Positions 14,111-46,311 of a stretch of 64,000 nucleotides of DNA are shown piece by piece. The notes below the pieces were generated by a model. That model saw nothing but the letters and a program-made list of their open reading frames with translations, ran no database searches and was not told the DNA's origin. Position 1 is the first letter of the stretch, and every line of letters begins with the position of its first letter. A program made the translations under genes and the position numbers. This DNA is from an uncultured Acidobacteriota bacterium (GTDB taxonomy: Bacteria > Acidobacteriota > JAQAZP01): positions 1,312,001-1,376,000 of the forward strand of contig CAWIIB010000001.1 in assembly GCA_963836075.1 (NCBI GenBank). Reading direction: 5' to 3'.

Positions 14111-14696
14111 CCGTTTCCTTCCAGATCGCGCAGCCACTCCAGGTCTTCCACCCGGTTGACGTTGAACAGCGACAGGCCGGGATGGGAGGGGACCACCTTC
14201 ACCCAACAAAGCTCGCGGAACCCGGAGTCGATTTTGTAGTCCCCCTGCTCCAGACGCCGGCGCCAGTAGCCACCGGTATCGCGGTGGTAGAGCGCGGCCA
14301 GCGGTTCGGGCCGGACCCCGCCGCTGAGCGCCGCCACCCGGTCACCGTCGGAAACCCGTTCCACCAGCAACCGCAGGTCTGCGGCTGTGAGCAGCGGCAT
14401 GTCCCCGGCCACCACCAGGGCCCAGCGGGTGGGACAGGCCGGGAGCAGGGCTGCCAGGCCGCCGAGGGGGCCGCACCCGGGCCGGGCGTCGGCAATGATC
14501 CGTCCGGGATCGGGCCAGATACCGTCCAGGTTGTCACCCACCGCAAAGGGCGGTCGGCCCAGTACCTGTTCCAGCAGGCTGCCCGCCCGCTGAAGCAGGG
14601 TCCGCCCCCCACCTCGAAGAGCCGCTTGTCCCGACCCATCCGGGTGGCCCGGCCGCCGGCCAGCACAAACCCGGTCACCTCCTCGATCTCCGCCAC
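14107..14696 (-). CDS. mobA: Molybdenum cofactor guanylyltransferase, apparent frameshift (one G missing in the G6 run at 14605-14610)
   Basis: N-terminus VLAGGRATRMGRDK in one frame; GPLGGL, GDMPLL, PEPLAALY, NVNR in another. GTG start at 14696 with GGGAGG RBS. Confidence 0.85.
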
Positions 14697-21031: not shown

Positions 21032-23263
21032 ATGATAGCAGATAGTTCAATGGAACTGGTCAATACAGCAAACAGTGGAGCCAACGCACCGGCGGGCCGC
21101 GGGATTCCGGAGAAGGATTCGGTGGTGCAACTGTACGTCCGGCTGAACACGGCCCGCAAACTGGGCGAGTTTTTCTCCAGCGACCACCCCTGTTTTCTGG
21201 AAGCGGTGGAAGGGGCCGCCGAGATCATCAACGGCTTCGGCGAGTATGCCGGAGAATTGAGCTATTCCAGCAACGATGGATCGATCTCCTCCGGGGGCAC
21301 CCGCTTCAAACCGGAAGAACCATACCTAGATGACTTTGCCGCCGCTCTCCGCACCGCGAACATCACCGTGATCCGGTTGGCCCGCGGCGTCGCCGCCGCC
21401 GGACTGGCCAGCTTCACCAGCCTGCTGGCCGCCTGCACCGATCTGGATGTGGGAACCGGCAAGATCCGCCAGTTGATCAGCGGGCTGGTGGCCGACGGGA
21501 TCCGGGTGGGAATGACACCGGCCGGAGGGCCGGCCGTGGAGAGCGTGCCCCTTGGCCAGAGCGTGGAGGAAGCGGTCTGGAAAACCGAAGTACAACGTCT
21601 GTTCGGGGTCATCCCGGCCTGCAAATCTGCCCCGGGTGCCGGCACCGAAACCGGCGAGAACGTGGTTCTGGCCAACATAAACCCCCGCCGGCTGGCCGGG
21701 TTGATCAACACCTTCGATTCCGTCGTAACCGCGGACACGGTGTACGAGAAGTTCCTGATGCCGTATCTTCGACAGGTTGCCGATGGTGAAAGCGGGTCCG
21801 AAGGCCTGATCCCGGACCACGTCCAGCTGCGGTTCATTCAATTTCTCCGGGCGCTCTCCCCCGGTCACCAGGTCCGGTTCACCACCGCGGTTCTGGAGAC
21901 GTCACACTCCTTCACCCCGTTCGCCACAGGTGTCCTCGAGGCCATACCCGTACAGTTGGCCGGCAAGGCCCTGGCCAGGATCAAAACCGAGGAGAACACG
22001 GTCCACCCCCGGATCACCAGCCGGTTCGAAGCGCTGTGCCGTCTCACCGGATGGAACCCCTCGGCCGATGACCAGTCTCCCCAGGCTCCGGGAGAAGTTG
22101 ATATCGACGTCAATACCGTCGATGGTGTCGTCCGCTGCACCCCACGGTTCGAAAAAGCAGCAGCCGGCACGGCTCCACCGGTCAGACGAATCTCCTTTGC
22201 CGCCGAATTCACTCCGGCCGGCAAGCGGAAGGCACTGATTCGGGTGGGGTTGGACCTGCTGGAGAGATCCACCACGCTTGAAGAGGCCCGCGTGCAATCA
22301 CGTGTACTGCCGCAGCTCTTCACCGAAGCGCTGAACGAACGGGACTGGATCGGGTTGAACCGTGACTGGATTGATCTGGTGGCACTGGTGAAAAAGGGCC
22401 AGGCGTCCAGACCATTCCTCACAAAAACGCTCAGGCGGATACGGGAGTCTTTCATCACTGCCCAGACAATGGAGCGAATCGTCATCGGCATCGAAAACTG
22501 CAGTGCTGAAACCGGCGAACTGTTCAAACAGTGGCTTCCGGCACTGGGCCCCGCGGCCGGCGATGCCATGATCAAGGCCCTGATAGAATCCAACAACCGT
22601 TCCCGGCGCCGCCACCTGCTGTCCGCCATCGTCTGCTTCGGACAGGACGCGGTGCCGCTGGCTCTGAAGCGGATCAGCGACCCCCGCTGGTACGTGGTGC
22701 GGAACATGATCACCATCATCCGCGAGGTCGGCGACAAACGGGCGGCCGAGGACCTGCTCACACTCACCAATCACGCCCAGTTCCAGGTGCGCCGGGAACT
22801 GATCAACACGCTCCTCGCCCTGGACCACCCGGAGGGCCTGGAACTGGCGGAAAGCTGTATCCGTTCCGGGGATCGCAAATTGAGATCAGCCAGCATCGGC
22901 CTCCTCGGCTCACACCGCGTTGACGGAGCCCGGAACATTCTGTTGCAGGTCCTGAAGGACCAGGAGAGCCGGGGAGTTCCGTACAGCCAGCCCCAGAAGG
23001 TCAGCGCGATCTGGGCCCTGGGACAGATCGGGAACCGCGCGGTCCTGCCGGAACTGCAGCAATTCCTGAAGAAAAGCCGGATGTTCAAATCGCCGGACAA
23101 ACACGAACTGAAAATGGCCATCTTGCGCAGCCTGCCAGGGTATCAGCTCAAGGATGTGGAAGCGCTGGCCCGATGGGGAATGGCCAACGGTGACGAAGAC
23201 GAGGCCGCCAGCTGCAGCATGCTGGTGAGCAACATCCTGCTGCTCACGGGGGCGGGCAAATGA
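21032..23263 (+). CDS. HEAT-repeat protein
   Basis: DPRWYVVRN, VRREL, AIWALGQIG repeats; ATGA overlap with the HD-GYP gene. Confidence 0.78.
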   Translation: MIADSSMELVNTANSGANAPAGRGIPEKDSVVQLYVRLNTARKLGEFFSSDHPCFLEAVEGAAEIINGFGEYAGELSYSSNDGSISSGGTRFKPEEPYLDDFAAALRTANITVIRLARGVAAAGLASFTSLLAACTDLDVGTGKIRQLISGLVADGIRVGMTPAGGPAVESVPLGQSVEEAVWKTEVQRLFGVIPACKSAPGAGTETGENVVLANINPRRLAGLINTFDSVVTADTVYEKFLMPYLRQVADGESGSEGLIPDHVQLRFIQFLRALSPGHQVRFTTAVLETSHSFTPFATGVLEAIPVQLAGKALARIKTEENTVHPRITSRFEALCRLTGWNPSADDQSPQAPGEVDIDVNTVDGVVRCTPRFEKAAAGTAPPVRRISFAAEFTPAGKRKALIRVGLDLLERSTTLEEARVQSRVLPQLFTEALNERDWIGLNRDWIDLVALVKKGQASRPFLTKTLRRIRESFITAQTMERIVIGIENCSAETGELFKQWLPALGPAAGDAMIKALIESNNRSRRRHLLSAIVCFGQDAVPLALKRISDPRWYVVRNMITIIREVGDKRAAEDLLTLTNHAQFQVRRELINTLLALDHPEGLELAESCIRSGDRKLRSASIGLLGSHRVDGARNILLQVLKDQESRGVPYSQPQKVSAIWALGQIGNRAVLPELQQFLKKSRMFKSPDKHELKMAILRSLPGYQLKDVEALARWGMANGDEDEAASCSMLVSNILLLTGAGK

Positions 23264-23977
23264 CAGAAAGCGGACAAATGTTCGATGCCGACCTCAGGGA
23301 ACTGGACACCGAGTTCAACCGGTTGGCAACGGGTTTTCTTACCAAGCTCGAGATACGGGACAGCAGCGCGGGCCGCTTGATCCACGACAAGGCCGGTGAC
23401 CTGCTCAACTGGTTCCACGGGTTTCCCCAGCCGCTGCGGCTGCTCTCCCGGTTGAGGACACATCACCCGGACAGTTTCAGCCACAGTGTCAACGTCTGTC
23501 TGCTCACCGCCATGCAGGTCGGACCAGGCAAACCTGCCCGAAGAGGAGCGGGAGGCGGCCCTGGCCGGTCTGCTGCACGATGTGGGCAAGGTGGCCGTAC
23601 CCGTGGAGGTGCTGGACAAGAAGGATGCCCTGTCCCGGACAGAGGCGGCAAAGATCAGTATCCACAGCGTTGCCGGCGCCAGGTCGCTGGCGGCAATGCC
23701 CGAACTGCCGCGGCTGGTGGTGGTGGGTGCCTGGGAGCACCACCTGCATTACGACGGCACCGGGGGATATCCCCGGCCCACCAGATGCCGCTCGCCGCAC
23801 CCGGTGAGCCAGATGATCGCCCTGGCCGACTTTTTCGACTCGCTGACCACCTGGAAACCGTACCGGCAGGAGCAGCCCCGGGACCAGGTGCTGCAAATGA
23901 TGATGGAGCGGGAGGGCCGGGTTTTCCATCCCGAGTTGCTGGGGGGCTTTACCGCGCTGATCGGATCTCTCAACTGA
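23260..23977 (+). CDS. HD-GYP domain protein, apparent frameshift (extra G at 23521-23522)
   Basis: HSVNV in the first frame; LLHDVGK, EHHLHYDGTGGYP, ADFFDSLT..KPY in the +1 frame. Removing one G gives MQVDQANLPEEEREAALAGLLHD. Confidence 0.83.
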
Positions 23978-26482: not shown

Positions 26483-27278
26483 TCACTGCCGCTCTTTCCG
26501 TTTCCCGGCCATCCGGCGGAGCAGGGTCTTCACCAGCGGTGTGCGGAGCAGGGTGACCAGGAGCCGGTTGCGCCAGCCGGTAATCACCACCACCCGGCGG
26601 CGGCGCAGAGCGGTGAGCGAAATATCCACCACCTGCTCGGCGGTCATCCAGAGCCACCGGGGCACCGAGGAGCGGTCGAAGTCGTATTCCGGCGTATCGT
26701 GGAAACCGGTGTAGGTAAACCCGGGACAGAGGGCCTGGACACGGACACCGCTGCCGGCCAGCTCGGCATCCAGCGCCTCGGTGAACAGGTTGAGAAACGA
26801 CTTGGTGGCCGAGTAGACCGCCCCGCGGGGGGTGGGAAGGAAGGCGGCCACCGAGGAGACGTTGATCACCGCCCCTTCGCCGGCCCGGATCATCGCCGGC
26901 AGGGCGGCACGGCAGAGCCGCACCGTGGCGGTCAGGTGCACGTCGATCATCGCTTCCTGCCGGTCCGGATCGACGTCGGCCACCAGGCCCGGAACCCCGA
27001 ACCCGGCGTTGTTCACCAGCAGCGCCAGGGCCGGGCCCCCGGCCACCCGCTCCTCCAGCCGGTGCAGGCTGTCCGGGTCGGCCAGGTCGGCGGGAAGGAC
27101 CTCCACCGGCGCCCCGTGCTGCTCTTCCAGTTCCCGGGCCAGCGCCTCGAGACGATCGGCTCGGCGGGCGGTGAGCAGCAGGTCCGTACCCCTCGGCGGC
27201 CAGTCGCCGGGCATAGACCTCCCCGATGCCGCTGGAGGCGCCGGTGATCAGAGCCGTTCCCTTGAACGTTCCGGCCAT
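26483..27278 (-). CDS. SDR oxidoreductase, apparent frameshift (extra base at 27184-27185)
   Basis: TGASSGIG in one frame; NNAG, YSATK, CPG in another. Removing one G restores AEGYDLLLTARR. Confidence 0.85.
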
Positions 27279-28208: not shown

Positions 28209-28338
28209 TGCCTGTCCTTTCCCGCCGGACGGCCGGGCTCGGGCCGTTCCTGCTGCTGTCAAGCGAATCCCGTTTCCACCGGGCCGCGGCCACGCCGCAA
28301 GTTACCCGTTCAATGATATGTTACGAATTCGGGTCATT

Positions 28339-29094
28339 TCAATCCGTGCCGCCGCCCAGGCCAAAATCGGACAGCAGCGGCGGCTCGGCGTCCGCCCGCT
28401 CCAGCAGGCGCAGGGCCGCCTCGATCACCGCGTGCTGCCGCGACGGACTGTCCGGTTTGTCCAGGGGATAGCCGTGGGCAAAGGGGACGAAGAGGGCCCG
28501 CGGCGGACGGACCTTCACCGCCGCCTCGCGCAGCAGGGCCAGGGCCACCGTGGAAATTCCGCGCCGTTCCAGCTCCGCCGCCACCAGGCTCACGGCCTGG
28601 TTGCAGAACGGTCAGACCGGCACCAGCAGCGCCACGTCCACGCCGTCGGCCTGCAGGGCCCGGGCCGCCTCGGGCGCCGTCCGCCGCACCAGCCGGCCCG
28701 GAGCGGTGATCGAACCCATCATCGAGAGGTGCCGCTGGTTCACCGATCCGATCCGTCCCGAGACCACCAGCTCCTCCGCCCGGTCCATGGGGAACGCGAG
28801 GTTGGGATCCTGGCGGATGCCGCTGTGGTCGAAGCTGTCGCTGCGGTGGCTCTCGTCCAGCGATTCCAGCCTGGTCTCCCGGGGGATGAACCGGAAACTG
28901 GGGTCACCGCCGCGGCCGCCGTGGAAGAGGTCCTGGCCCGGGGCGGTGAATCCGGCGCTGCTGACCAGGGCCAGACGGCAACGGTTGAGCGGTTTGCGCA
29001 ACGGCGTCCAGGGCACGGGATCGATCCGGCGCCAGGGGTAGATACGGAGCATGGTGCGCAGGGTCAGGGAGAACTCTTCGAGCCGGCCCATCAT
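28339..29094 (-). CDS. PrdB/GrdB-like selenoprotein (Sec at TGA 28612-28614, U-P-F-C)
   Basis: ORFs 28612-29094 and 28339-28593 are in the same frame and join as DVALLVPV-U-PFCNQAVSLVAAELERRGISTV. LVSSAG, DPSFR, DPNLAFP and PPRALFVPF..G.PL are reductase component B motifs. Confidence 0.9.
28575..28611 (-). promoter_or_regulatory. Bacterial SECIS-like hairpin
   Basis: After UGA: CCGTTCTGCA-ACCAGGC-CGTGA-GCCTGGT-GGCGGCGG. Perfect 7-bp upper stem, 17 nt between UGA and the loop, G at loop position 2. Confidence 0.78.
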
Positions 29095-29534
29095 CCACCT
29101 CCAGTCCCGCTGCCCTCCATCGCGGCGATGAAACCGGGGGGCACCCGGGTAACCTTGCGCTCCCCGTAGTCGAAAAAGACAACACCGGTCTTGGCCCGGG
29201 CAGCTTCCTTGCCGCTGTTCCGGCTGGTGATGCGGTAGAAGAAGTCGCAGCCGCTGCGGCTCAGTTCACCCACTGCCACCTCGATGACCAGGCTGTCCCC
29301 GTGGAACACCTCGGAACGGTAGATCAGCATCGCGTCCACCATCAGCAGTCCCACACCGTCCACATCGTTCTCGGCATACCCCAGCTGACGGAGATAGCGC
29401 ACCCGCGCCTCGTGGACCAGGGAGAGCATGGAATCGTTGCCCAGGTGGCCGCCGTAGTTGATGTGGCCCACCTGAACCTCCAGTTCGGTGGAGAACGGGA
29501 ACAGCGCCGGCAGCTGGAGATTCAATCGGCCCAT
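29091..29534 (-). CDS. Hot-dog fold acyl-CoA thioesterase
   Basis: HINYGGHLGND..HEAR; ATGA-type overlap with the selenoprotein start. Confidence 0.88.
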   Translation of the reverse strand: MGRLNLQLPALFPFSTELEVQVGHINYGGHLGNDSMLSLVHEARVRYLRQLGYAENDVDGVGLLMVDAMLIYRSEVFHGDSLVIEVAVGELSRSGCDFFYRITSRNSGKEAARAKTGVVFFDYGERKVTRVPPGFIAAMEGSGTGGG

Positions 29535-29537
29535 CGG

Positions 29538-30956
29538 TCAGTTCCTCCCCGCCGGCGGCGAAGCAACGGCCTGCACGCGGAACGGCTGCAGTTTGCGGTA
29601 GGTCAGAGACCGCCAGAGCCATTCGGCCGGACCGAAACGGAAGCGCTCCAGCCAGGGCCGGCAGATGGCCAGCTGGATAACCCAGATGGCCAGCACCACG
29701 CCCATCAGCGGGAAACGGTTGACGCGGCCGAACAGCCCCAGGCCGTAACCGTAAAAAAGAAATGTGCAGATCAGCGTGTGCATCAGGTAGTTGGTCAACG
29801 CCATCCGGCCCACCGCCGCCAGCCGGCTGCGCAGTGCGGTAAACAGCCCGGCCTTGCAAACCAGCATCACCAGGCCCACATGGCCCAGGGAGACGAGAAA
29901 ACCGGCGACCAGATTGTAATGGCCGCCCAGGGAAAAGGTGTGGATGAAGTCGAACTCGTGGGCCTTGAGGTCCACAACACTCCAGACGGACAGCGGCAGG
30001 CCGAGGCCATAGCCCCAGAAAATCATCCCCCGGTAAAAACGGGAGGAGCGGTCCGCGGAAAAAACACCGCTCTTCATCAGTCCCATGCCGATGAGCATCA
30101 GGCCGCCCACGTGCCAGTAGACGTTGATGATCCCGGCGACGAGCTGCATGTTGAGCACCACGGGAAAGCGGTCGGCGAAGATTTCGCCGTAGGGGCCGGA
30201 CGAATAGAGATCTACCTCCTCCTGGAGTTGCTCCGGCGTGGGATAGTATTCCTTTTTCATCTCAGTCCAGGAGTCGAGCATCGATTGCTGCATGGCATCC
30301 AGATCCTGCCCCTCGGCCTCCAGCGCTTCCGCTTTCTGGGCGGTGTCGCGCATAAAGCTCATGAAGAGCCCCAGTCCGCTGCTCAGCGGAATTACCACCA
30401 GCATCAGCACGATCCCGGTGATCACCAGTGCCCGGGGGGAGAAACGGCGGAAGAAGTAGATCAGTAATCCGCACACCGCATAGGTGAAGAGGATGTCGCC
30501 GTACCAGAAGATGTAGGCGTGGACCATGCCGATCATCAGCAGCCAGAAACAGCGGCGGAACCAGATGCGGCCGAAACCTGAACCGCGCCGCCGGGCACGG
30601 TCGAACATCAGCACCACACCGGCGCCAAAGAGCATGGAGAAGATCGACATGAATTTCTGCTCGAAGAAGACGTGGGTCGCAAACCAGGTCCAGAGGTTGA
30701 CACCCTCCGCCCCGCCCCAGACCCGGGGATCGAAGTAAACCGCCCCGGGCAGGGCAAAGAAATAGATATTCATCACCAGGATGCCCAGCAGGGCGAATCC
30801 GCGCAGCGTGTCCACCGAATCGATGCGCTCGGCCTCGGCCACCGGTGCGCTCTCCGCGGGCAGGGTCTCCGTAACCGGGGACTCTCCGGAAAGATCGGGG
30901 GTCAACGGATCGCCGGGCAGCTGTTCTTCCATATTTTCACGTCTCCCGGGAGGCAT
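29538..30956 (-). CDS. DUF418 (YeiB-like) membrane protein
   Basis: DTLRGFALLGIL, FSMLFGAG, GDILF.YA, GRMALTNY, GPAEWLWR. Confidence 0.92.
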   Translation of the reverse strand: MPPGRRENMEEQLPGDPLTPDLSGESPVTETLPAESAPVAEAERIDSVDTLRGFALLGILVMNIYFFALPGAVYFDPRVWGGAEGVNLWTWFATHVFFEQKFMSIFSMLFGAGVVLMFDRARRRGSGFGRIWFRRCFWLLMIGMVHAYIFWYGDILFTYAVCGLLIYFFRRFSPRALVITGIVLMLVVIPLSSGLGLFMSFMRDTAQKAEALEAEGQDLDAMQQSMLDSWTEMKKEYYPTPEQLQEEVDLYSSGPYGEIFADRFPVVLNMQLVAGIINVYWHVGGLMLIGMGLMKSGVFSADRSSRFYRGMIFWGYGLGLPLSVWSVVDLKAHEFDFIHTFSLGGHYNLVAGFLVSLGHVGLVMLVCKAGLFTALRSRLAAVGRMALTNYLMHTLICTFLFYGYGLGLFGRVNRFPLMGVVLAIWVIQLAICRPWLERFRFGPAEWLWRSLTYRKLQPFRVQAVASPPAGRN

Positions 30957-30990: not shown

Positions 30991-31019
30991 ATTCTAGGGG
31001 GTGAACCCGGCCGGGTCAA
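30991..31019 (-). promoter_or_regulatory. Sigma70-type promoter of the DUF418-thioesterase-selenoprotein operon
   Basis: TTGACC-17 bp-TAGAAT on the minus strand. Confidence 0.6.
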
Positions 31020-31165: not shown

Positions 31166-31240
31166 TCAATGCAACAGATCTGATCGAAAGATAAGCAAAC
31201 CATGGGCACTGCGGGCCGGATGGCCACCAGGAGCAAAACC

Positions 31241-33634
31241 ATGCGCAAGATCACGCTGGCCGTTCTGGTGCTGTTCATCCTGTCCCCCACCGCCGCTGCT
31301 GCGGCCGTAATCCACGTTCCCGGGGACCAACCCACCATCCAGGCCGGCATCGACGCCGCATCACCAGGCGACACCGTGTTGGTGGCCAATGGCACCTACA
31401 CCGGCCCCGGCAACCGCGACCTCGACTTCAACGGCAAGTCGATCATCGTCACGTCGGAAGACGGCCCGGAAACCTGCATCATCGACTGCGATGGCCTGGG
31501 CCGCGGATTCCTCTTCCACAGCGGTGAGGACGAAGACGCGGTGGTCCAGGGCTTCACCATCCGCAACGGCTACCTGACCGATGGATCAGGGGCCGGTATC
31601 CGGATCACAACCGGATCCTCACCTGTGATCAACGGCTGTATCCTCACCGGCAATAATGCCGTCTACCCACGGAGCGGCGGTGCGGTCTGGGCCGACTCGG
31701 GACTGATCAGCGACTGCATCATCCAAAACAACCGGGCCGACGCCGGTGGTGGCCTGTCCCTGGGCGGCGATGCCGTGATCCACAACTGCCTGATCCTGAA
31801 CAACTGGGCCGACGAGGCCGGGGGTGGTGTGGTCACCGGATCCAGCGGAATGCCCACCCTCTCCCAGTGCACCATCACCGGCAACATGTCCGGGGAAGGC
31901 GGCGGCGGTCTGTTCGTGGGCTCCCTGGTGATGACCAACTGCATCGTCTGGGACAACTGGGCCTCCACCTATGGCGCCGACGGCTATGTCTGGGGTTGGA
32001 GTTACCAGCACACCTTCAGCTACAGTTACTCCAATCTGGGCTACTACTGGTATGTGGAGGATTACGCGGTTCTCGATCCCGGACCAGGTGTTTTTAGTGC
32101 CGACCCGCTCTTGGCCACCGGGCCGATGGGATCCTGGTATCTGAGCCAAATCGCGGCGGGACAGCCGGCAACAAGCCCCTGCGTCAACAGCGGTGATCCC
32201 GCCGCCCTGCCTTTCGGAACCACGCGCACCGACCTCCAACCGGACAGCGCAGTGGTGGACATGGGCTACCACCCCCTGCTCGACCAGGGGATGTATATCT
32301 GTCATCAGCCCTCCTCTTTCTATTACTACGATATCGACTTCGGCGATCCGCCTCCCGAGGACCGCACACTGGAGATCTGGCGCTGTGTGGAGGGCACGAT
32401 GGACTGGACCGTGACCAGCAGCGCCGGATGGCTGACCCTCGACCCGCTGTCCGGCAGTTCCACCGGCGAGGTGGACCAGGTGACGGTCAACGTGGACACT
32501 TCGGTGCTGGCCGCCGGCACCCAGCGGGCCGTAATCGTGATCAACGCACCCGGCGCACTGAACAACCCCGTAACCATCCCGGTGACGGTGGCTATCGACG
32601 GTGCCTGGACCCACTGGCGGCTGGCCGTCGGCCCGGGCCCCTCACCGGACAATCCTCCACTGGTCCGTGTCTTCAATGGCACCAATTTCGATCCGGGAAC
32701 GTTGCTGCACGAGTTCCCGGCATATGGGGCCACCGGCTACGGCGTGCGGGTTTCCTGTGGCGATCCGGATGGTGACGGTGTGGACGAAATCGTTACCGGG
32801 GCGGGTCCCGGGGCTCTATACGGACCCCACGTTCGGGGGTTCGAAGCTGACGGCACGCCGTTGCCCGGATTGAGCTTCCTCGCCTACGGCACCAACAAAT
32901 TCGGGGTGAACACGGCCTGCGGCGACCTGGACGGTGACCGTTTCGACGAGATCGTCACCGGCGCCGGACCGGGGGCAGTGTTCGGGCCCCATGTGCGGGG
33001 TTTTCGTTACCACCAGTCAACCGTCACACCATTGGCCGGGGTCAGCTTCTTCGCCTACGGAACCCACCGCTGGGGCGTGAACGTCGACTGCGGCGACCTG
33101 GATGGCGACGGCATGGACGAGATTGTCACCGGCGCCGGGCCGGGAGCGATCTTCGGCCCCCACGTGCGGGGCTGGAACGTGGACGGCGCAACTGCCGCCC
33201 CGATGCCGGAAGTCAGTTTCATGGCCTACGACAGCAATCACTTCGGCGTGAATGTGGCCTGCGGCGACCTGGACAATGACGGTCTGGACGAAATCGTCAC
33301 CGCCCCGGGACCCGGGCCATCGCTGGGCGCATATATTCGCGGCTGGAATGTCGACGGCGGTCAGCTGACCCCGATACCCGGCTGTGACCTGTTCGTCTGG
33401 CCGCCGGGCCAGAGACTACACGGGGCACGGGTCGCCGTCTCCCCACGGGGCCGGTCCGCCAGCACGGGCAAAGAGTTCATCATCGTCGGTTGCGGCCCGG
33501 ATCCGGCAGCCGATTCGGAAATCAAAACCTATAGTTATAACTCCGACCTGGAGCAATTGGACCCCTGGATCTCGTTCACCTCTTTTGACGGATCGGTTTG
33601 GGGCGTGGACGTGGCCGGAGGAGGCATGGAGTAA
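31241..33634 (+). CDS. Secreted beta-helix + BACON-like + FG-GAP-like repeat protein, paralog 1
   Basis: AGGAG RBS, signal peptide, VIHVPGDQPTIQAGID, GGG/N-rich beta-helix, WTVTSSAGWLTL, repeated CGDLDGDG.DEIVTGAGPG..GPHVRG. Confidence 0.85.
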   Translation: MRKITLAVLVLFILSPTAAAAAVIHVPGDQPTIQAGIDAASPGDTVLVANGTYTGPGNRDLDFNGKSIIVTSEDGPETCIIDCDGLGRGFLFHSGEDEDAVVQGFTIRNGYLTDGSGAGIRITTGSSPVINGCILTGNNAVYPRSGGAVWADSGLISDCIIQNNRADAGGGLSLGGDAVIHNCLILNNWADEAGGGVVTGSSGMPTLSQCTITGNMSGEGGGGLFVGSLVMTNCIVWDNWASTYGADGYVWGWSYQHTFSYSYSNLGYYWYVEDYAVLDPGPGVFSADPLLATGPMGSWYLSQIAAGQPATSPCVNSGDPAALPFGTTRTDLQPDSAVVDMGYHPLLDQGMYICHQPSSFYYYDIDFGDPPPEDRTLEIWRCVEGTMDWTVTSSAGWLTLDPLSGSSTGEVDQVTVNVDTSVLAAGTQRAVIVINAPGALNNPVTIPVTVAIDGAWTHWRLAVGPGPSPDNPPLVRVFNGTNFDPGTLLHEFPAYGATGYGVRVSCGDPDGDGVDEIVTGAGPGALYGPHVRGFEADGTPLPGLSFLAYGTNKFGVNTACGDLDGDRFDEIVTGAGPGAVFGPHVRGFRYHQSTVTPLAGVSFFAYGTHRWGVNVDCGDLDGDGMDEIVTGAGPGAIFGPHVRGWNVDGATAAPMPEVSFMAYDSNHFGVNVACGDLDNDGLDEIVTAPGPGPSLGAYIRGWNVDGGQLTPIPGCDLFVWPPGQRLHGARVAVSPRGRSASTGKEFIIVGCGPDPAADSEIKTYSYNSDLEQLDPWISFTSFDGSVWGVDVAGGGME

Positions 33635-33661
33635 AGGTTGGAAGCCAACAGGAGAAAACAG

Positions 33662-36028
33662 ATGCGGTTGTGGCTGCTCGTCCTCTGTATTTTGCTGGTT
33701 TTTGGTCCACCAACTGCCGCAATAGCCGCCGTGATCCACGTTCCCGCCGACCAGCCGACGATCCAGGCCGGCATCGACGCCGCTGCGACCGGCGACACGG
33801 TGCTGGTCGCCGATGGAACATACACCGGCCCTGGCAACCGCGACCTCGATTTTCACGGCAAATCGATTACCGTCACCTCGGAGAACGGCCCGCAGGCCTG
33901 CATTATCCATTGCCAGGAACTGGGCCGGGGATTCCATTTCCACAGCGGGGAGGACGGGAACGCGGTGCTCAACGGAATTTCCATCGGCAACGGGAACATT
34001 TCCGGAGGCGGTGGCGGCATCCTGATCGAGAACTGGTCCGCTCCGGAGATCAGCAACTGCGTGATCAACGGCTGCGACGCCGGGTACGGCGGCGGTGTGG
34101 CAGCATCGGGCGGCCTGATCACCGACTGTGTGATCAATTTCAACGAGGCCCTCACCGGTGGTGGGCTGGCCCTGCAAGGCAATGCCGTGGCCCACAACTG
34201 CCTGATAACCAGCAACTTCGCGGAGGGCGGGGGTGGCCTTTATGCCGGAGTCGAGGGATGCGCCACCGTTTCCAATTGCACGATCAACAGCAATCTGGCA
34301 ATCGACGTCGGCGGCGGAGCAGAGGTTTACAACCTGACGATGACCAACTGCATCATCTGGAACAATACCATCGCGACGATCTACGGCGCCGACATCTATG
34401 TCGGATCCTACGGGGGAAATACCTTCTCTTACAGCTACACCGAGATGGGCACGTACTGGTCCTGGGAGGACTCCTCGGTGCTCGACCCGGGTCCTGGAAA
34501 TTTCTCGGCTGATCCACTTTTCACCGACGGACCCAGCGGGAACCGGTATCTGAGCCAGACCGTCGCCGGTCAGCCGGCAAACAGCCGCTGCGTCGACAAT
34601 GGCGATCCCGCCACGCCGCCCTTTGGCACCACGAGAACCGACCGCGAGGCGGATGTGGGCGTGGTTGATATTGGCTACCACTACCCGCTGGAGGAGGGGC
34701 CACGTATTTGCCACGACCCGGCGTATTTCACCTACGACCTCGACAGTGGCGGCCCGCCTCCCGCGGACCGCACGCTGGAGATCCGGAACTGCGGGGAGGA
34801 GACGATGAACTGGTCGGTGAACAGCACGGCTGGCTGGCTAACCCTCGATCCGCTGTCCGGCAGTTCAGCCGGTGAGATGGATACAGTGACCGTCAGCGTG
34901 GACCCGTCATCGCTGGCCGCCGGCACCGAGCGGGCCGAGATCGTGATCAGCGCACCCGGGGCGCTGAACAGCCCGGTGACCGTCCCGGTGACGCTGGTGC
35001 TGGACGGCCCCTTCCCCTACTGGGGCTACGTGGCCGGTCCCGGCCCGTCTCCCGACAATCCGCCACTGGTCCGGGTCTACGAAGGCTGGGGCTCGCCGAC
35101 GCTGCGGCACGAATTCCCCGCCTATGGCGCCGCCGGGTACGGGGTGCGCGTGGCTTGCGGTGACCCGGATGGCGACGGCGATGGCGAGATCATCACCGGT
35201 GCCGGGCCGGGGGCGATCTACGGCCCCCACGTGCGGGGGTTCGAGCCCGACGGAACCCCGCTGCCGGGCCTGAGCTTCATGGCCTATGGCACGCTGAAAT
35301 ACGGGGTGAACGTCTCCTGCGGTGACCTGGACGGCGATGGCATTGACGAAATTATCGCCGGCGCCGGGCCAGGCGCCGTCTTCGGCCCCCATGTGCGGGC
35401 CTTCAGTTACGACCGCGACACGGCCGCCGTCACCCCACTGGGTGGGGTCAGCTTCTTCGCCTACGGCACCCTCAAGTGGGGTGTAAACGTCGACTGCGGC
35501 GACCTGGACGGCGACGGCATCGACGAGATCGTCAGCGGCGCCGGACCGGGTTCGGGGTTCGGCCCACACGTGCGGGGCTGGAAGGTGGACGGCGGCATTG
35601 CCGCGCCGATGCCGGGGGTCAGTTTCATGGCCTACAGCTACGTGCGTTTCGGCGTGAACATGGCCTGCGGCGACCTGGACGGCGACGGCCTTGACGAGAT
35701 CCTCACCGCACCAGGTCCCGGACCGTCCCTGGGCCCCTACATCCGGGGTTGGAACGTGGACGGCAAACAGGTGACCCCGATCCCCGGCTGCGAAGGTAAT
35801 GCCTGGCCGCCGGGTCAGCGGTTCTACGGGGCTCGGGTGGCAGTGATTCCGGGTGGCCAACCGGCGGAGACCATTCTGGTGGGCGGAGGGCCCGACCCGT
35901 CCGAGTGGTCGGACATTCAAGCATATCTTTACAATCCCGACACCGAGCAGCTCGAACTTCAGTTTTCCTTTGACACATTCGCGGGGACATTGTGGGGTGC
36001 GGATGTGGCCGGCGGCGGTATGGAATAA
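33662..36028 (+). CDS. Secreted beta-helix + BACON-like + FG-GAP-like repeat protein, paralog 2
   Basis: Same architecture as paralog 1; AGGAG RBS; ends GADVAGGGME. Confidence 0.85.
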   Translation: MRLWLLVLCILLVFGPPTAAIAAVIHVPADQPTIQAGIDAAATGDTVLVADGTYTGPGNRDLDFHGKSITVTSENGPQACIIHCQELGRGFHFHSGEDGNAVLNGISIGNGNISGGGGGILIENWSAPEISNCVINGCDAGYGGGVAASGGLITDCVINFNEALTGGGLALQGNAVAHNCLITSNFAEGGGGLYAGVEGCATVSNCTINSNLAIDVGGGAEVYNLTMTNCIIWNNTIATIYGADIYVGSYGGNTFSYSYTEMGTYWSWEDSSVLDPGPGNFSADPLFTDGPSGNRYLSQTVAGQPANSRCVDNGDPATPPFGTTRTDREADVGVVDIGYHYPLEEGPRICHDPAYFTYDLDSGGPPPADRTLEIRNCGEETMNWSVNSTAGWLTLDPLSGSSAGEMDTVTVSVDPSSLAAGTERAEIVISAPGALNSPVTVPVTLVLDGPFPYWGYVAGPGPSPDNPPLVRVYEGWGSPTLRHEFPAYGAAGYGVRVACGDPDGDGDGEIITGAGPGAIYGPHVRGFEPDGTPLPGLSFMAYGTLKYGVNVSCGDLDGDGIDEIIAGAGPGAVFGPHVRAFSYDRDTAAVTPLGGVSFFAYGTLKWGVNVDCGDLDGDGIDEIVSGAGPGSGFGPHVRGWKVDGGIAAPMPGVSFMAYSYVRFGVNMACGDLDGDGLDEILTAPGPGPSLGPYIRGWNVDGKQVTPIPGCEGNAWPPGQRFYGARVAVIPGGQPAETILVGGGPDPSEWSDIQAYLYNPDTEQLELQFSFDTFAGTLWGADVAGGGME

Positions 36029-36051
36029 GAAACAACCAGGAGAGATCACAA

Positions 36052-38370
36052 ATGCCCATGCTCGTCATTTTCATTGGCTCGCTCCTGCTGTGCGGACTGT
36101 CGACGAATGGGTCCGCTGACGTAATCCACGTTCCCGGGGACCAACCCAACATCCAGGCCGGCATCGACACCGCGGTCAGCGGCGACACCGTGCTGGTGGC
36201 CGACGGCATCTGGACCGGTGCGAACAACCGCACCCTCGACTTCCGCGGCAAGGCGATCACGGTGAGCTCGGCCAACGGCCCGGGGTTCTGCACCATCGAC
36301 TGCCTGGAGCAGGGGTGTGCCGTCCACTTCCAGAACGGTGAAGACCTGGACTCCGTTTTCACCGGGTTTACCATCTTCGACGGCCATGGCGAGGGGGGGG
36401 GAGGCATCAGGGTGGAGAGCGGGTGCACACCGCTGATCGCCAACTGCGTGATCCAGGGCTGCCTCGCCTACTATGGTGGTGGCCTGTACCTTGGCGACGA
36501 CGCCGTGATCCGGAACTGCCTGATCCACGACAACCACGCCTACGAGGGTGGAGGGGGGATACACACCAGGATCGATGCCAACCCTTTGGTTACCAGTTGC
36601 ACCATCACCGACAATTTCAGCGGGGAGGTTGGCGGCGGAGTATTCGTGGTGGACAGCATGGTGATGACCAACTGCATCGTCTGGGAGAATGAAGCCTTAT
36701 TTGACGGAGACGAAGGTTACCTGGCGGGATACGGCGCTTCCCCCACCCTCAGTATCAGCTACAACGACCTGGGGCTGTACTGGTATCTCGGGTATTACAC
36801 CTATATCGACAACGGCCCCGGAAACATCACCGCCGACCCGCTCTTCGCCTCCGGGCCGGACGGGGACTGGTTCCTCGGCCAGACCGCGGCTGGCCAGCCG
36901 GCCCAGAGCCCCTGCGTGGACAGCGGCGATCCGGAGGTGACGCCGTTCGGCACCACTCGCACCGACCTCGAACCCGACACCGGCGCACTGGACATTGGCT
37001 ACCACCCGGTAATGCCCGCGGGGATGTATATCTGCCACGAGCCCTATTCCCTGATCTACTTCGCCGAGCTCGGCGACCCGCCGCCGGACGACCGCCAACT
37101 GGAGATCTGGCGCTGCGTGGAGGGAACGCTGGAGTGGACGGTGAGCAGCCCGGCGGACTGGATCACCCTCGCCCCGCTCTCCGGCAGCTCCACCGGCGAG
37201 GTGGACACGGTGACGGTGAGCGTGGATTTCTCAACCCTGGCCGCCGGCACCGAGCTGGCCGAGATCGTGATCAACGCCCCCGGAGCGCTGAACGACCCGG
37301 TGACCATTCCGGTCAGGGTGCACATCCATGGGCCAAACTCGCACTACGGTCTGGTGGCCGGCCCGGGCCCGTCGCCGGACAACCCGCCCCTGGTCCGGGT
37401 GTTCGCCAGCGGTGACCCGCCGGCACTGCTGCACGAGTTCCCGGCGTACGGGGCCGACGGCTACGGCGTGCGGGTCACCTGCGGGGATATGGACGGTGAC
37501 GGCGCCGAGGAGATCGTCACCGGGGCCGGGCCGGGGGCGATCTATGGCCCCCACGTAAGGGGTTTCGAGATCATCGGTGCGCCGCTGCCGGGATTGAGCT
37601 TCATCGCCTACGGCACCCACAAGTACGGGGTGAACGTCTCCTGCGGCGACCTGGACGGAGACCGCTATGACGAGATCGTCACCGGCGCCGGGCCGGGCGC
37701 GGTCTTCGGGCCCCACGTGCGTGGGTTCCAGTATGACCACGAGGCGGGCACCGTGGCCCCGCTGGGCGGAGTGAGTTTCTTCGCCTACGGCACGAACAGG
37801 TACGGCGTCAACGTCGACTGCGGCGACCTGGACGGCGACGGCATGGCCGAGATCGTCACCGGCGCCGGGCCGGGCGCGGTCTTCGGCCCCCACGTGCGGG
37901 GCTGGAACGTGGACGGGGGCACTGCCGCCCCCATCCCCGGGATCAGCTTCATGGCCTACAACAGCAACCACTACGGCGTGAACGTGGCCTGCGGCGACAT
38001 CGACGGCGACGGCCTGGCCGAGATCATCACCGCCCCGGGGCCGGGCCCCTCGCTGGGGGCCTTCATCCGCGGCTGGTCCTTCGACGGCAGCCAGGTGTCG
38101 CCGGTCCCGGGCTGTGACATCTTCGCCTGGCCGCCGGGCGATCGCCTGTGCGGCGCCCGGGTCGCCATGCAGCGAGCGGCCGGCGGTTCAGCCATCGACT
38201 TTAACTACATCCTCGTCGGTGGCGGCCCCGACCCGGCGGCCGACACCGAAGTCCAGGTCTATGTCTACCGTACGGACTCCGAAGAACTGTTCCTGCTCCG
38301 GTCTTTCGAGACCTTTGACGAGGGCATGACCTGGGGCGTGGACGTGACCGGCGGCGGCATGGAGTTCTAG
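36052..38370 (+). CDS. Secreted beta-helix + BACON-like + FG-GAP-like repeat protein, paralog 3
   Basis: Same architecture; AGGAG RBS; ends GVDVTGGGMEF. Confidence 0.85.
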   Translation: MPMLVIFIGSLLLCGLSTNGSADVIHVPGDQPNIQAGIDTAVSGDTVLVADGIWTGANNRTLDFRGKAITVSSANGPGFCTIDCLEQGCAVHFQNGEDLDSVFTGFTIFDGHGEGGGGIRVESGCTPLIANCVIQGCLAYYGGGLYLGDDAVIRNCLIHDNHAYEGGGGIHTRIDANPLVTSCTITDNFSGEVGGGVFVVDSMVMTNCIVWENEALFDGDEGYLAGYGASPTLSISYNDLGLYWYLGYYTYIDNGPGNITADPLFASGPDGDWFLGQTAAGQPAQSPCVDSGDPEVTPFGTTRTDLEPDTGALDIGYHPVMPAGMYICHEPYSLIYFAELGDPPPDDRQLEIWRCVEGTLEWTVSSPADWITLAPLSGSSTGEVDTVTVSVDFSTLAAGTELAEIVINAPGALNDPVTIPVRVHIHGPNSHYGLVAGPGPSPDNPPLVRVFASGDPPALLHEFPAYGADGYGVRVTCGDMDGDGAEEIVTGAGPGAIYGPHVRGFEIIGAPLPGLSFIAYGTHKYGVNVSCGDLDGDRYDEIVTGAGPGAVFGPHVRGFQYDHEAGTVAPLGGVSFFAYGTNRYGVNVDCGDLDGDGMAEIVTGAGPGAVFGPHVRGWNVDGGTAAPIPGISFMAYNSNHYGVNVACGDIDGDGLAEIITAPGPGPSLGAFIRGWSFDGSQVSPVPGCDIFAWPPGDRLCGARVAMQRAAGGSAIDFNYILVGGGPDPAADTEVQVYVYRTDSEELFLLRSFETFDEGMTWGVDVTGGGMEF

Positions 38371-41300
38371 GCACGCCGGGCCACGGCTTTCTTCTCTTCA
38401 CGCAGCAGCTTCACCCCCTCGGCGATCAGGTTGGGGGCGCCGTGATCATCCTCGACACGTCCCTTGACCAGGAAGGGCCCCGAGGCCCGTGACAGCTCGG
38501 CGGCGAACCGGCGGTAGACCCGGGGGAAGAAGGTGGCCTCGAAGCGGCCGTGGGGATCGGAAAAGGTGACAAAGGCCATCGGCTCGTTCTTCTTCTCGGT
38601 GCGGGTGCGCTTGGTGGTCACCTTCCAGCCGAAGCAGTACGCAGTCTTGCCGTCCATCTTCTCGAGGTCCACGGAGCGGACCACCGGACGCTGCCTCGCC
38701 ACCCGTGACAGCCGCTCGGCAAACAGTTCCAGCGGGTGGGCGGTGGCGGTGAGCCCCAGCAGGTCGAGTTCGAGGAGCATCTTCTTCTGCCGGGGGTAGT
38801 CCTCCAGCGGCGGCAGTTTGCCGGCCAGCTGCTCGAAGTTGTGGGGGCACCCCTTGTCCGGCCCGGAGAAGAGCAGCCCGATGAGCCAGAGCAGCTCAGG
38901 CCGGGTGCGGCCGAGACAGTCGAGCGCGCCGCAGCGGGCCAGGGCCTCCAGCTCGGCTTTCTCGGGGCGCAGTTCGCAGCGCCGGGCCAGTTCGTCGATG
39001 GCGGTGAAGGGCCCGTCCTTCGCCCGGGCCTCCACAATGCTCTCCAGCTGTTCGGCGCGCACCCCCTTGACCATCATCAGCCCCACCCGCACCGCCTTGC
39101 CCTCGCCGGTGAAGCGCACCTCGCCCCGGTTGACGCAGGGCAGGATGATCTCCAGCCCCAGGCGCCGCGCCTCTTCCACGTATTCCAGCGACGAGTAGTA
39201 GCCGCCCTGGTTGGAAAGCACCGCGGCCATGAAGTGTGCCGGGTGGTGCGCCTTCCAGTACATGCTCTCGAAGGATTCGAGGGCAAAGGAGGCGGAGTGG
39301 GCCTTGCAGAAGGCGTAGCCGGCAAAGGACTCGATCTGGCGGAAGACCTCGGTGATCACGTCGTCGGGCACGCCGTTCCCGGCGGAGCCGCGGAAGAAGC
39401 GGTGCTTGTATTTCTCCATCCGCTCCCAGTTCCGTTTCTTGGACATGCACTTGCGCAGCCCGTCGGCCTCGGAGAGGCTCATCCCGGCCATCTCGGAGGC
39501 GATGCGGATCACCTGCTCCTGGTAGATCAGGCAGCCGTAGGTGTCGGACAGCACCGGCTCCAGACGGGGGTGGAGAAAGCTCACCGGCTCGAGGCCCAGG
39601 TGGCGGCGCACGTACTGCCGCTTGCCGCCGTGGTTGGAAACACCGGGGCGGATGATGGAGGAGATGGCGGTGAGCACCTCGAAGTCGTCGCAGCGGGTCT
39701 GGCGGATCAGCTGGATCATGCCCGGGGACTCGATGTAGAAACAGCCCTCGCTGTGGCCCTCGCGCATCATCTCCCGGGTCAGCGGGTCGCTGAGACAGCG
39801 CAGCGGGTCGTCGCCGTGGAGGCCCTCCTCCGGCCCCGCCTCGCCGTCCCCCCGCTCAGCGGCCGCCGCCCGCTGGGTCTCGGAGATCACCGCCAGCCCC
39901 TTCTGGCCCAGGATGTCGATCTTCAGCAGGCCGGCGTCCTCCACGGGGTACATCGACCACTGGGTGATGGGCAGGCCCTTGTCGCCCAGCTCCAGCGGCA
40001 TGTGGTCGGTGATCGGCCCGGGGGCCACCACCAGGCCGCAGGGGTGGGTGGCCAGGTGGCGCGGGAAACCGCTGACCCGCCCGGCAGCCTCGAGGATCGA
40101 GCGGAACGGCTCACGGTCCAGCGGCAGCCCGTGGCTCTCCGGCCAGCGATCGGCCGCCTCCCCCACCCCCTCGGCCGAGGCGAAGTGAGGCAGCTTCTTC
40201 ACCACCGCGTCGATCTCACCCACGGGGATGCCCATGGCCGACGCCACCTCGCGGATCGCCGACCGGGCGCGCATGGTGGAGTAGGTGCAGATCATCGCCA
40301 CCCGGTCACGGCCGTAGCGGCGAAAGATGTAGTCCAGCACCTCTTCGCGGTCGTCGGTGCCGAAGTCGATGTCGAAGTCGGGCATCGATTCCCGCTCGAG
40401 ATTGAGAAAGCGCTCGAAAAAGAGATTGTGCCGCAGGGGGTCGACGTGGGTGATGAAGAGACAGAAGGAGACGATGCTGTTGGCCGCCGACCCGCGGCCC
40501 AGACAGGGCATGCCCTCCTGGCGGGCGAAGCGGACGATGTCGTGGCAGACGAGGAAGTAGTCTTCCAGCTCGAGGCGGCAGATCACGTCCAGTTCGCGGT
40601 TCAGGGTGTCGTAGGCCTCACGGGTGATCGGCCGGTAGCGCTGCTCCAGACCCTGGAAGGCCAGCTTGCAGAGCCAGGAGAAGGAGCTCTCCCCCTCGGG
40701 CACCGGAAAGCGGGGCAGCTTGGGCCGGCCGATCTCCAGGTCGACGCGGCAGGACCAGGCGATCTCGGCCGCGTTACGCAGGGCCTGGGGCAGGTCATGA
40801 AACAGGGCGGCCATCTGGGCCGGACTCTTGAAGTGGTTCTCGCGGTCCACCGCGGCGCCGGCGGGGAGGGTGCCCACGGTGGTGTTGGTGCGCATGGCCG
40901 AGAGCAGCCGGTGGGTGAAGTGGTCCTCGGCGGCCAGCAGGTGGACGCGGTTGGCAGCAGCCACCGGGAAACCGAACTTCTCGGCCAGGGTGATCAGACG
41001 GTAGCCGTGGCGGCGGCTGGCCGCGTCACGGATGTTGGTCAGTTCGACGTAGACGTGGTCCGGCCCCTGACGGCCCCGGGAGCAGTCGCGGGCGCCGGCC
41101 AGGGCGCCCAGCAGCTGCTGGTCGGCGGTGAGCACCACCACCCGCGGGGAAAGTTCGGCCAGGCAGGCATCGAGGTCGAAATCCTCTTCCAGGTGCCTGG
41201 CGGTCACCGCCCGGCAGACCTCGGCGTACCCCTCGCGGTCACGGGCCAGCAGCACGGCCCGCCGCCGCGGCCCGGCCTCCCGCCGGGTTCGGCCCGGCTC

Positions 41301-41573
41301 GCGTTTCCTCTCCCCCCGGCCTTCGGCAGCCGCTCCCCCGCTCTCCTGTCCAGCCACGCCCAGTTCCAGCTCGGCGCCATAGATCGGCCGCACCCCCTCG
41401 GCCACACAGGCCTGGTGAAAGGGCACAGCAGCGTAGAGCCCGTTGGTGTCGGTGAGCGCCAGGGCGTCCATCCCCGCCTCCCGAGCAGCAACGGCCAACT
41501 GCTCTACCGTGGCCGTACCGGAGAGGAGGGAGAAATTGGAGTGGCTGTTGAGGTGGACATAGGGGATCGCCAT
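38367..41573 (-). CDS. dnaE2: Error-prone DNA polymerase III alpha (DnaE2 type)
   Basis: PHP domain (HSNFSLL, ALTDTNG), GRGSAANS, PDFDIDF, HPCG, KIDILG, YAFCKAH; linked to lexA and dinB. Confidence 0.9.
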   Translation of the reverse strand: MAIPYVHLNSHSNFSLLSGTATVEQLAVAAREAGMDALALTDTNGLYAAVPFHQACVAEGVRPIYGAELELGVAGQESGGAAAEGRGERKREPGRTRREAGPRRRAVLLARDREGYAEVCRAVTARHLEEDFDLDACLAELSPRVVVLTADQQLLGALAGARDCSRGRQGPDHVYVELTNIRDAASRRHGYRLITLAEKFGFPVAAANRVHLLAAEDHFTHRLLSAMRTNTTVGTLPAGAAVDRENHFKSPAQMAALFHDLPQALRNAAEIAWSCRVDLEIGRPKLPRFPVPEGESSFSWLCKLAFQGLEQRYRPITREAYDTLNRELDVICRLELEDYFLVCHDIVRFARQEGMPCLGRGSAANSIVSFCLFITHVDPLRHNLFFERFLNLERESMPDFDIDFGTDDREEVLDYIFRRYGRDRVAMICTYSTMRARSAIREVASAMGIPVGEIDAVVKKLPHFASAEGVGEAADRWPESHGLPLDREPFRSILEAAGRVSGFPRHLATHPCGLVVAPGPITDHMPLELGDKGLPITQWSMYPVEDAGLLKIDILGQKGLAVISETQRAAAAERGDGEAGPEEGLHGDDPLRCLSDPLTREMMREGHSEGCFYIESPGMIQLIRQTRCDDFEVLTAISSIIRPGVSNHGGKRQYVRRHLGLEPVSFLHPRLEPVLSDTYGCLIYQEQVIRIASEMAGMSLSEADGLRKCMSKKRNWERMEKYKHRFFRGSAGNGVPDDVITEVFRQIESFAGYAFCKAHSASFALESFESMYWKAHHPAHFMAAVLSNQGGYYSSLEYVEEARRLGLEIILPCVNRGEVRFTGEGKAVRVGLMMVKGVRAEQLESIVEARAKDGPFTAIDELARRCELRPEKAELEALARCGALDCLGRTRPELLWLIGLLFSGPDKGCPHNFEQLAGKLPPLEDYPRQKKMLLELDLLGLTATAHPLELFAERLSRVARQRPVVRSVDLEKMDGKTAYCFGWKVTTKRTRTEKKNEPMAFVTFSDPHGRFEATFFPRVYRRFAAELSRASGPFLVKGRVEDDHGAPNLIAEGVKLLREEKKAVARRA

Positions 41574-41753
41574 GGTGGCCGGTATATATCAAGCACAGCG
41601 CTATTCTCTTTCCTGCCGGGCCGCCCGGCGGCGTGCACCTGCACGCCACCGCGGGCCCCTGAGCGTCGGAACCCGGGCGAAACGGTGAAGAGGTACACCT
41701 GCGAAGCACCCGTTCACCAGATCCGCTGGCCCGGCATATAAACCACAAAGGGT

Positions 41754-41806
41754 TTTCGCTTTATTTTCGTCAAAATCAATATAGACGAAAATAAAGCGAA
41801 AGTCAA
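41754..41806 (-). promoter_or_regulatory. dnaE2 promoter with two inverted candidate LexA boxes
   Basis: TTGACT(41806-41801)-17 bp-TATATT(41783-41778); TTTCGCTTTATTTTCG at 41754-41769 (+) and 41801-41786 (-), forming a perfect 18-bp inverted repeat. Confidence 0.8.
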
Positions 41807-41831
41807 GGAGGGATGGAAACAGTGGGGACAG

Positions 41832-43955: not shown

Positions 43956-44102
43956 CCTCCTGCACCTCCAGTGGCATCCGTAGTAAGACGACATAATCGA
44001 TCAAGATTATTTCGTATAAGTATCATATTTATTAACATCTTACAGGATGATCACTGAAATTCAAGAGGAAGGGGGGAGGATCAGATGGGGCGGGGGAACC
44101 CG

Positions 44103-44133
44103 CTCACCGGCCGGCTCACGGCCAGCCGGTGAG
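44103..44133. terminator. GC hairpin downstream of the DUF1579 gene
   Basis: CTCACCGGC...GCCGGTGAG inverted repeat; no clear U-tract. Confidence 0.4.
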
Positions 44134-44149
44134 TCGATGGGACAGGCTT

Positions 44150-44773: not shown

Positions 44774-44809
44774 ATGTATTGTGTTGCTTTGAGTATGGTG
44801 TCGATTCTT

Positions 44810-44834
44810 ATGATCGACTATATCTGTCTACTAT
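44810..44834. promoter_or_regulatory. 25-bp palindromic operator (IscR/Rrf2 type-1-like) at the DUF1579 promoter
   Basis: ATGATCGACTATATCTGTCTACTAT overlapping the end of the -10 of TTGACA-16 bp-TAAGAT; 20/25 identical to the site at 52293-52317. Confidence 0.6.
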
Positions 44835-44880
44835 CTTACTTGCCCTCCCCTGTTTGTCAATGAAAAATTCTGTCAGAACA

Positions 44881-46122: not shown

Positions 46123-46173
46123 GGCAACAACTCCCTTCAGTCTTTTCGATCAGTTGGAAACGGAATATTGAAT

Positions 46174-46246: not shown

Positions 46247-46311
46247 TCCTAGGCATAACCTCATCTGTGGCCCGATAGCGGCGTTAACGACTTCCTCGAA
46301 TCCTGGAAATC

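Follow-up and report, generated by a model that had tools for sequence, protein, structure and literature searches.

A gene on the minus strand of the window (the whole 64-kb stretch of DNA analyzed here), located at 28339..29094, appears from its sequence and its relatives to be a real selenium-containing enzyme gene concealed by an apparent stop codon. We are highly confident that Sec is inserted at UGA161, and its recoding by SelB and a SECIS is judged near certain. Within the PrdB/GrdB family (PF07355), the gene falls into a branch that stands alone, its product being neither true PrdB nor GrdB. The sequence-only reading of this DNA, which gave no strand, had been right to detect a hidden selenoprotein, one that belongs to a known family. 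As recoding, the case is textbook, and the operon story specific to this locus fails; modestly new is the evidence that the branch is partner-free and misnamed.

The UGA codon, its hairpin and the read-through protein

The gene comprises 251 codons with UGA read as Sec, starting at an ATG at 29094 or 29091 and ending at a TGA stop (28341-28339). A Shine-Dalgarno-like GGAGG precedes the start at 29098..29102 on the minus strand, within the end of the thioesterase gene, and GGAGG was also found in L001 and L002. Reading TGA as Sec across 29094-28339 gave 251 residues with one internal TGA at codon 161 (...DVALLVPV-U-PFCNQAVSLV...), confirming that the in-frame TGA joins two ORFs as LLVPV-U-PFC. 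The Sec codon (28612..28614, minus strand) encodes residue 161, the first position of UxxC, and the codon for Cys164, the resolving Cys of U-P-F-C, lies at 28603..28605 (minus strand). Gene calling with table 11 split the gene into ORFs of 160 aa (28612-29094) and 84 aa (28339-28593). The plus-strand reading of 28339..29094 was rejected, as it encoded no meaningful protein, and our own filters found no further UGA+SECIS candidates in the 64-kb window.

The protein search yielded 3528 relatives among 8000 scored candidates, 120 of which were listed. Among these 120, 97 were short forms stopping just before the UGA column, and the 23 full-length relatives (52-71% identity) carried C (19), W (2), or G (2) at that column, where W and G are likely the gene callers' rendering of TGA under other codes. 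GTDB genomes were then scanned with an alignment of 35 of 121 sequences, from which P0028 and the Trp/Gly forms were excluded, and 507 stretches encoding a relative were retrieved; the best 80 of these 507 are referred to as loci and by L numbers. The sequence-only reading had proposed aligning homologs at the Sec column, and this turned out in its favor, with TGA in 79 and TGC in one (L012) of the best 80 loci. In all of these 80 loci, the frame remained open for 83-105 codons beyond the column and the Cys at +3 was kept. The Cys form in L012 was verified at the DNA level, and the SECIS hairpin at the usual spacing is absent there. L018 (10001-10744) contains a second in-frame TGA upstream, near residue 59, and its gene may be broken; L046 carries a partial second copy (14221-14412) at its contig end, possibly an assembly artefact.

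SelB-tRNA(Sec) binds the loop of the SECIS and inserts Sec. The bacterial SECIS at 28580..28604 (minus strand) consists of a 7-bp upper stem (28601-28583), the loop CGUGA (28594-28590), and a 2-bp lower extension. The hairpin, ACCAGGC-CGTGA-GCCTGGT, has G as its second loop base and a UGA-to-loop gap of 17 nt, and our own script, rather than bSECISearch, returned a stem of 7, a loop of 5, a spacing of 17, and an energy of -11.2 kcal/mol. These values agree with every element of the bacterial consensus as given in the accessible text of PMC13188914 (loop of 3-9 nt, stem of 4-16 bp, G in the first two loop bases, spacing of 16-37 nt, and MFE of at most -7.5). The folding energy was not unusual for 65% GC DNA (z of -0.3 to -1.4 against shuffles) and was dropped as evidence for a SECIS; chance therefore had to be excluded by comparison, and the support comes from conservation.

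Under a simple hairpin test, the best hairpin lay at spacing 17/18 in 74 of the 79 TGA loci (within the best 80 of 507) and 68 of the 79 reached -7.5 kcal/mol, compared with 68/635 passes and 3/635 at spacing 17/18 among ordinary called TGA stops of the same loci. When columns are counted from the U of the UGA codon, all seven pairs of the upper stem held in 74-79 of the 79 TGA loci. The pair +18:+26 was GC in 44, AT in 29, GT in 5, and AC in 1 of the 79, where an Ala/Thr change goes together with a synonymous third-position substitution, be the codon Ser, Gly or Cys, and the pair +14:+30 was CG in 65 and TA in 8 of them; no other column pairs within -60..+90 (150 columns) covaried as strongly as these two. 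Third positions were unusually fixed in codons +3 to +7 and +9. On a tree built without the SECIS codons, +18 and +26 needed 13 and 15 changes, respectively, with 11 in common, and the shared fraction of 0.73 exceeded that of the next best partner (0.30-0.37) and the median of the other columns (0.15-0.19). A strict independent-pairs covariation test was underpowered, with only 3 supported pairs (p 0.5). In a subset of 36 sequences, 95.7% of cells were paired and double changes numbered 23, versus 8.6 after shuffling (0/500 shuffles as high), a result that leans favorable because the subset was hand-picked for diversity. The Rfam scan of the window gave no match. Overall, the comparison argues that the hairpin is a real SECIS with covariation, and the original description of an element 17 nt past the UGA with a G early in its loop holds.

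AlphaFold, run on the read-through alignment, predicted a single alpha/beta domain across the UGA (pLDDT 90.9), in which the last residue is an artefact of the stop being read as Cys. Strands are contributed by both halves, and UxxC sits between strand 154-158 and helix 164-177; the two halves are thus modeled as one Rossmann-like alpha/beta domain. A PDB sequence search found nothing below E 0.34, and Foldseek gave no match at E 0.001 or less. VIA-align returned only generic alpha/beta matches (Z 7-9) for both the query and a fused sister form, the C-terminal domain of the latter being barely covered. The top matches were Rossmann-like and periplasmic-binding folds (Z 7-8.9; best 9kpr_B, rmsd 3.5, 135 aligned); none of the top 50 chains listed has a thioredoxin fold.

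We consider it extremely improbable that the UGA is a true stop separating two genes or marking a pseudogene, a sequencing error, or a codon read as Cys or Trp. In favor of such explanations, two nearby window genes carry frame shifts when compared with their intact counterparts in L001 and L002, namely an SDR gene (26483-27278, minus strand; shift near 27190) and an HD-domain gene (23260-23977, plus strand; shift near 23480-23520), each a pseudogene or an indel error. Insertion of Cys at UGA in a SECIS-dependent manner has also been described in some bacteria, and no selA, selB, selD or tRNA-Sec was found in the 64-kb window. Against them, TGA occupies the equal column in 79 genomes of many phyla (within the best 80 of 507), one predicted domain spans the codon, and what looks like a GTG start for the second ORF is in fact the SECIS loop. 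TGA is also the commonest ordinary stop among the window genes, which points to table 11 and away from a general reading of TGA as an amino acid. Sec machinery genes lay close to the gene in 3 of the best 80 of 507 loci, selB being within 7 kb in L009, with a part of it in L038 as well, and selA at most 9 kb away in L054. A SelB match in L035 proved to be TypA/BipA and was discarded, and a tRNA-Sec scan of 48 of the 80 loci found none.

Family position, reductase partners and gene neighborhood

The query scored 30.6 against the PF07355 GRDB family (gathering cut-off 22), covering profile positions 206-345 of 347. Its best NCBIfam match was TIGR04483 (PrdB), with 107.6 bits at E 6.7e-31 over residues 28-234, versus an equivalog cut-off of 300; the query fell below the cut-off of every NCBIfam model, including TIGR01917, TIGR01918 (33.5 vs 65.45), NF040794 and NF040795. 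Relatives carry the names 'D-proline reductase PrdB' (JGI) and 'selenoprotein B family protein' (RefSeq). In a quick, unrooted tree, 81 rows formed one long branch (SH-aLRT 98-99), far from PrdB and from two Alphaproteobacteria Cys orphans. Plasmids of Haematobacter and Roseomonas carry Cys orphans.

With an E-value limit of 0.001, a profile search gave 2881 cluster representatives; among the best 150, 18 carried an extra helical C-terminal domain of ~150-190 residues. The sister clade that joins a PrdB-like CxxC domain to this all-helical domain includes P0131, P0132, P0155, P0158, P0162, P0165, P0167-P0169, P0173, P0177, P0179, P0184, P0196, P0208, P0209, P0242 and P0254, and Sec versions of the fused form are present in the GOS supplement. 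The model of the sister form is confident, and the C-terminal domain contains the motifs D-[LIV]R-x-YYEEAA ... WF; it has no Pfam family, and its Atlas matches were all unnamed clusters under 0.9. A search for this domain as a partner gene of its own gave no match below E 0.16 in the window and 85 loci. A search for fused forms containing the N-terminal half (281-2000 aa) gave two matches among 1893 candidates and neither was used, one being joined to a PLP-decarboxylase-like protein by a low-complexity linker with the look of a frameshift artefact, and the other ending in off-frame sequence. A distant family member, P0200, has a fused N-terminal HTH_3 domain.

Queries for PrdA, PrdC and GrdE-like proteins, taken from annotated plasmids and with L081, L082 and L085 as positive controls, gave no match in the window and the 80 loci with their 10-kb flanks (1.16 Mb in all), although the queries did recover one another. 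Pfam scans of 53 window proteins likewise found no Gly_reductase, GRDA or thioredoxin domain, in agreement with the statement that no prdA, grdA, grdE or thioredoxin partner occurs in the window. No thioredoxin or other reductant gene recurred near the best 80 of 507 loci. The orphan state had been presented as unusual; the gene is indeed partner-free here, but this is not special to the locus, being the rule across at least 12 phyla among the best 80 of 507 loci. These counts are approximate because the names of L012 (Bifidobacteriaceae), L019 (Bifidobacterium) and L072 (Akkermansia muciniphila) clash with their tree neighbors or flanking genes, L019 and L072 being near copies of Verrucomicrobiota loci.

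Since the partner search covered the window and 10-kb flanks, a pyruvoyl proprotein (PrdA/GrdE) may be encoded elsewhere in the genome, and the gene would then be a true D-proline/glycine-type reductase B subunit, as its top NCBIfam match (TIGR04483) and the JGI name of its relatives would suggest. We nevertheless regard this as quite unlikely, given the score of 107.6 against 300, the 30-32% identity to three true PrdB proteins, and the separate long branch. In addition, prdA or a prdA-like region adjoins prdB in 3/3 canonical loci, compared with 0/80 PrdB-like loci (best 80 of 507). Peptoclostridium acidaminophilum prdB, an orphan according to its annotation, was rejected as such, since an unannotated prdA-like region (L081:7687-8994, plasmid EAL2_808p) sits directly upstream of it.

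In the window, the order on the minus strand is a DUF418/YeiB-like membrane protein gene (29538..30932), a 3-bp gap, a hotdog-fold thioesterase-like gene (PF13279; 29091..29534) whose stop overlaps the selenoprotein start (ATGA), and the PrdB-like gene. A sigma-70-like promoter match, TTGACC-17-TAGAAT, lies upstream of DUF418 (30991..31019, minus strand; a consensus match only), and a second promoter-like match at the selenoprotein stop (28313..28342, minus strand) probably serves the downstream Usp gene. The sequence-only reading had coupled the three genes behind one promoter and suggested acyl or thioester chemistry. The gene order is as it described, and this order recurs in L001 and L002, so that joint chemistry with the two neighbors could be imagined; the functional link found no support and we consider it very improbable. 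Among the best 80 of 507 loci, the synteny was kept in L001 and L002 only. These are the nearest kin (86-88% identical, on one starred branch of the quick tree, L002 being labeled Acidobacteriota) and share the whole region with the window, including the dnaE2, Usp, SDR, PALP and Smr neighbors. The remaining 78 loci had neither the thioesterase nor DUF418 in their flanks (0/78); their upstream sequence reached at least 1 kb in 74 and at least 2.5 kb in 63, with at least 2.5 kb on both sides in 51. The confinement of this order to near kin with whole-region synteny indicates local inheritance, and the two genes are probably co-transcribed with the selenoprotein gene by lineage accident.

Clustering of 1266 called genes, obtained with a crude caller of our own and including false ORFs, revealed no specific partner, the biggest other clusters being generic signaling, ABC and SDR families. 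Of 150 immediate neighbors, 120 (one from each cluster) were scanned with Pfam, as were 67 proteins representing the recurring families; Gly_reductase, GRDA and thioredoxin domains were absent, and the functions were unrelated, with no common theme. Neighbors were on the same strand in 45/76 cases upstream and 36/74 downstream. Elsewhere in the window, 38367-46917 (minus strand) holds one run of lexA-like, Y-family polymerase (IMS), DUF1579, TonB receptor and second dnaE-type alpha subunit genes, which we take to resemble an SOS mutagenesis cassette. Three tandem paralogues of ~800 aa with beta-helix, BACON and FG-GAP domains lie at 31202-38370 (plus strand), with two in L001 and none at the equivalent place in L002. 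An NfeD-like gene at 53174-53939 (minus strand) is followed by a 99-aa ORF without a Pfam match, presumably a stomatin/SPFH start cut short.

Proposed reaction and its implications

The protein is probably not a D-proline or glycine reductase. The non-Stickland function proposed earlier is probable, given the absence of PrdA, PrdC and GrdE matches in the window and 80 loci and the sub-cut-off PrdB score; its acyl/thioester part is not retained. The reading that we cautiously prefer is a Sec/Cys redox enzyme that stands alone and relies on general thiol systems for its recycling, and the chances are about even that it is a thiol-recycled oxidoreductase of the kind outlined here. The selenolate would attack a small substrate that is oxidized or electrophilic, with peroxides, S-oxides and mixed disulfides as the likeliest candidates; Cys164 would then resolve the adduct to a selenenylsulfide, which a general cellular thiol system encoded elsewhere would re-reduce. 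If no pyruvoyl partner takes part, the steps of the PrdB cycle still open to the protein would be selenolate attack, a Se-S bond to Cys164, and its reduction by a thiol from outside. For a gene that is solitary and spread over aerobic and anaerobic phyla, a housekeeping function in redox chemistry or detoxification seems to fit best. GrdB itself reportedly has peroxidase activity, according to the title of a paper cited in PMC3091704.

The main alternative, which we regard as unlikely, is the cleavage of a carbon-heteroatom bond (C-N, C-S or C-halogen) in a substrate that is self-activated, with a selenoether resolved by Cys164, i.e., PrdB/GrdB-type chemistry without the pyruvoyl subunit. The nearest characterized relatives work via selenoether formation and cleavage, according to the accessible parts of PMC3091704 and PMC10298544, and the Rossmann-like fold, whose top 50 listed structural matches include no thioredoxin-fold chain, is compatible with such chemistry. 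A polar core is also common to the query family and true PrdB (H83, D89, D96, N98, P102, R105, E108, M126, G127), which may point to a chemistry in common that involves an amino-acid adduct. On the other hand, no transporter or catabolic gene recurs nearby, and the motifs HGGxD and T[AG]G-U/C-GTCHR, defined from three canonical PrdB proteins and present in 3/3 of them, are replaced in 80/80 PrdB-like loci (best 80 of 507) and missing from the query.

The clade has consequences for annotation. The UGA-split annotation combined with the D-proline reductase name means that Stickland proline reduction may be wrongly credited to genomes of Acidobacteriota, Myxococcota, Verrucomicrobiota, Brocadiaceae and Desulfobacterales. 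More tentatively, the 'proline reductase PrdB' group, so filed for twenty years and among the more common selenoprotein groups of environmental bacteria, may consist of selenoenzymes that have no partner and catalyze a reaction not yet described, perhaps C-N/C-S/C-halogen cleavage independent of a pyruvoyl group; the locus would lie in a tight cross-phylum clade, next to a sister clade with the unnamed helical C-terminal domain. Should the clade truly lack PrdA, it would offer a small, single-chain PrdB/GrdB catalytic domain whose natural Cys forms lend themselves to easy expression, and, as no solved relative was found, a practical route to the structure and selenium chemistry of this domain.

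Comparison with known systems

PrdB-like selenoproteins beyond clostridia have been catalogued since 2005 and hence are already known. The Sargasso Sea data contained 42 'PrdB' versus one GrdA and one GrdB (PMC1088965), and the GOS ocean surface metagenomes contained 235 'PrdB' versus 5 GrdB and 1 GrdA (PMC2398784), an excess that appears to fit poorly with Stickland fermentation. Single 'PrdB' copies were listed in Anaeromyxobacter and Geobacter (PMC1794560), and PrdB was counted among the five most widespread bacterial selenoproteins (PMC9312934, PMC5029168). These figures come from the accessible portions of the respective sources, and in those of the Sargasso and GOS papers the proline-reductase function was assigned by homology, with no remark on missing partners. 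A term search of GOS Dataset S1 found VPVUP 67 times, TPVUP 29 times and TAGUG never; near look-alikes were present (YYPW...SFDHSG...VPVUPMCHQTV), and the exact clade motifs UPMCNQ and UPFCNQ had 0 occurrences. The accessible parts of PMC12013277, PMC13326102, PMC10059138 and 10.1101/2021.03.15.435355 added nothing, and no paper on a PrdA-less PrdB clade or its stand-alone state was found in the literature outside subscription journals and bioRxiv supplements.

With GrdB, GrdF and GrdH (PF07355, TIGR01917, TIGR01918), the query shares the C-terminal PF07355 part and the nature of a UxxC selenoprotein; it differs in having no N-terminal part of ~200 residues and no grdA or grdE, and the GrdB motif blocks described in the accessible text of PMC9751293 are missing. 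With PrdB (TIGR04483), it shares the length of ~240-250 aa, UxxC at the equal column, and a SECIS just 3' of the UGA. The PrdB-like clade differs in carrying LLVPV-U-PxC-NQ where PrdB has TAG-U-GTC-HR, in an extra N-terminal YPWRR motif, in the lack of prdA and prdC nearby, and in its hosts, which include Acidobacteriota, Myxococcota, Verrucomicrobiota, Desulfobacterales and others, but not clostridia. In PrdB, itself a UxxC selenoprotein, Sec attacks proline held on the pyruvoyl group of PrdA, Cys resolves the selenoether, and PrdC re-reduces the enzyme, as described in the accessible parts of PMC3091704, PMC10298544 and PMC13188914. The scheme proposed here would correspond to the Se/S redox half-cycle of PrdB minus the proline-activating pyruvoyl subunit.
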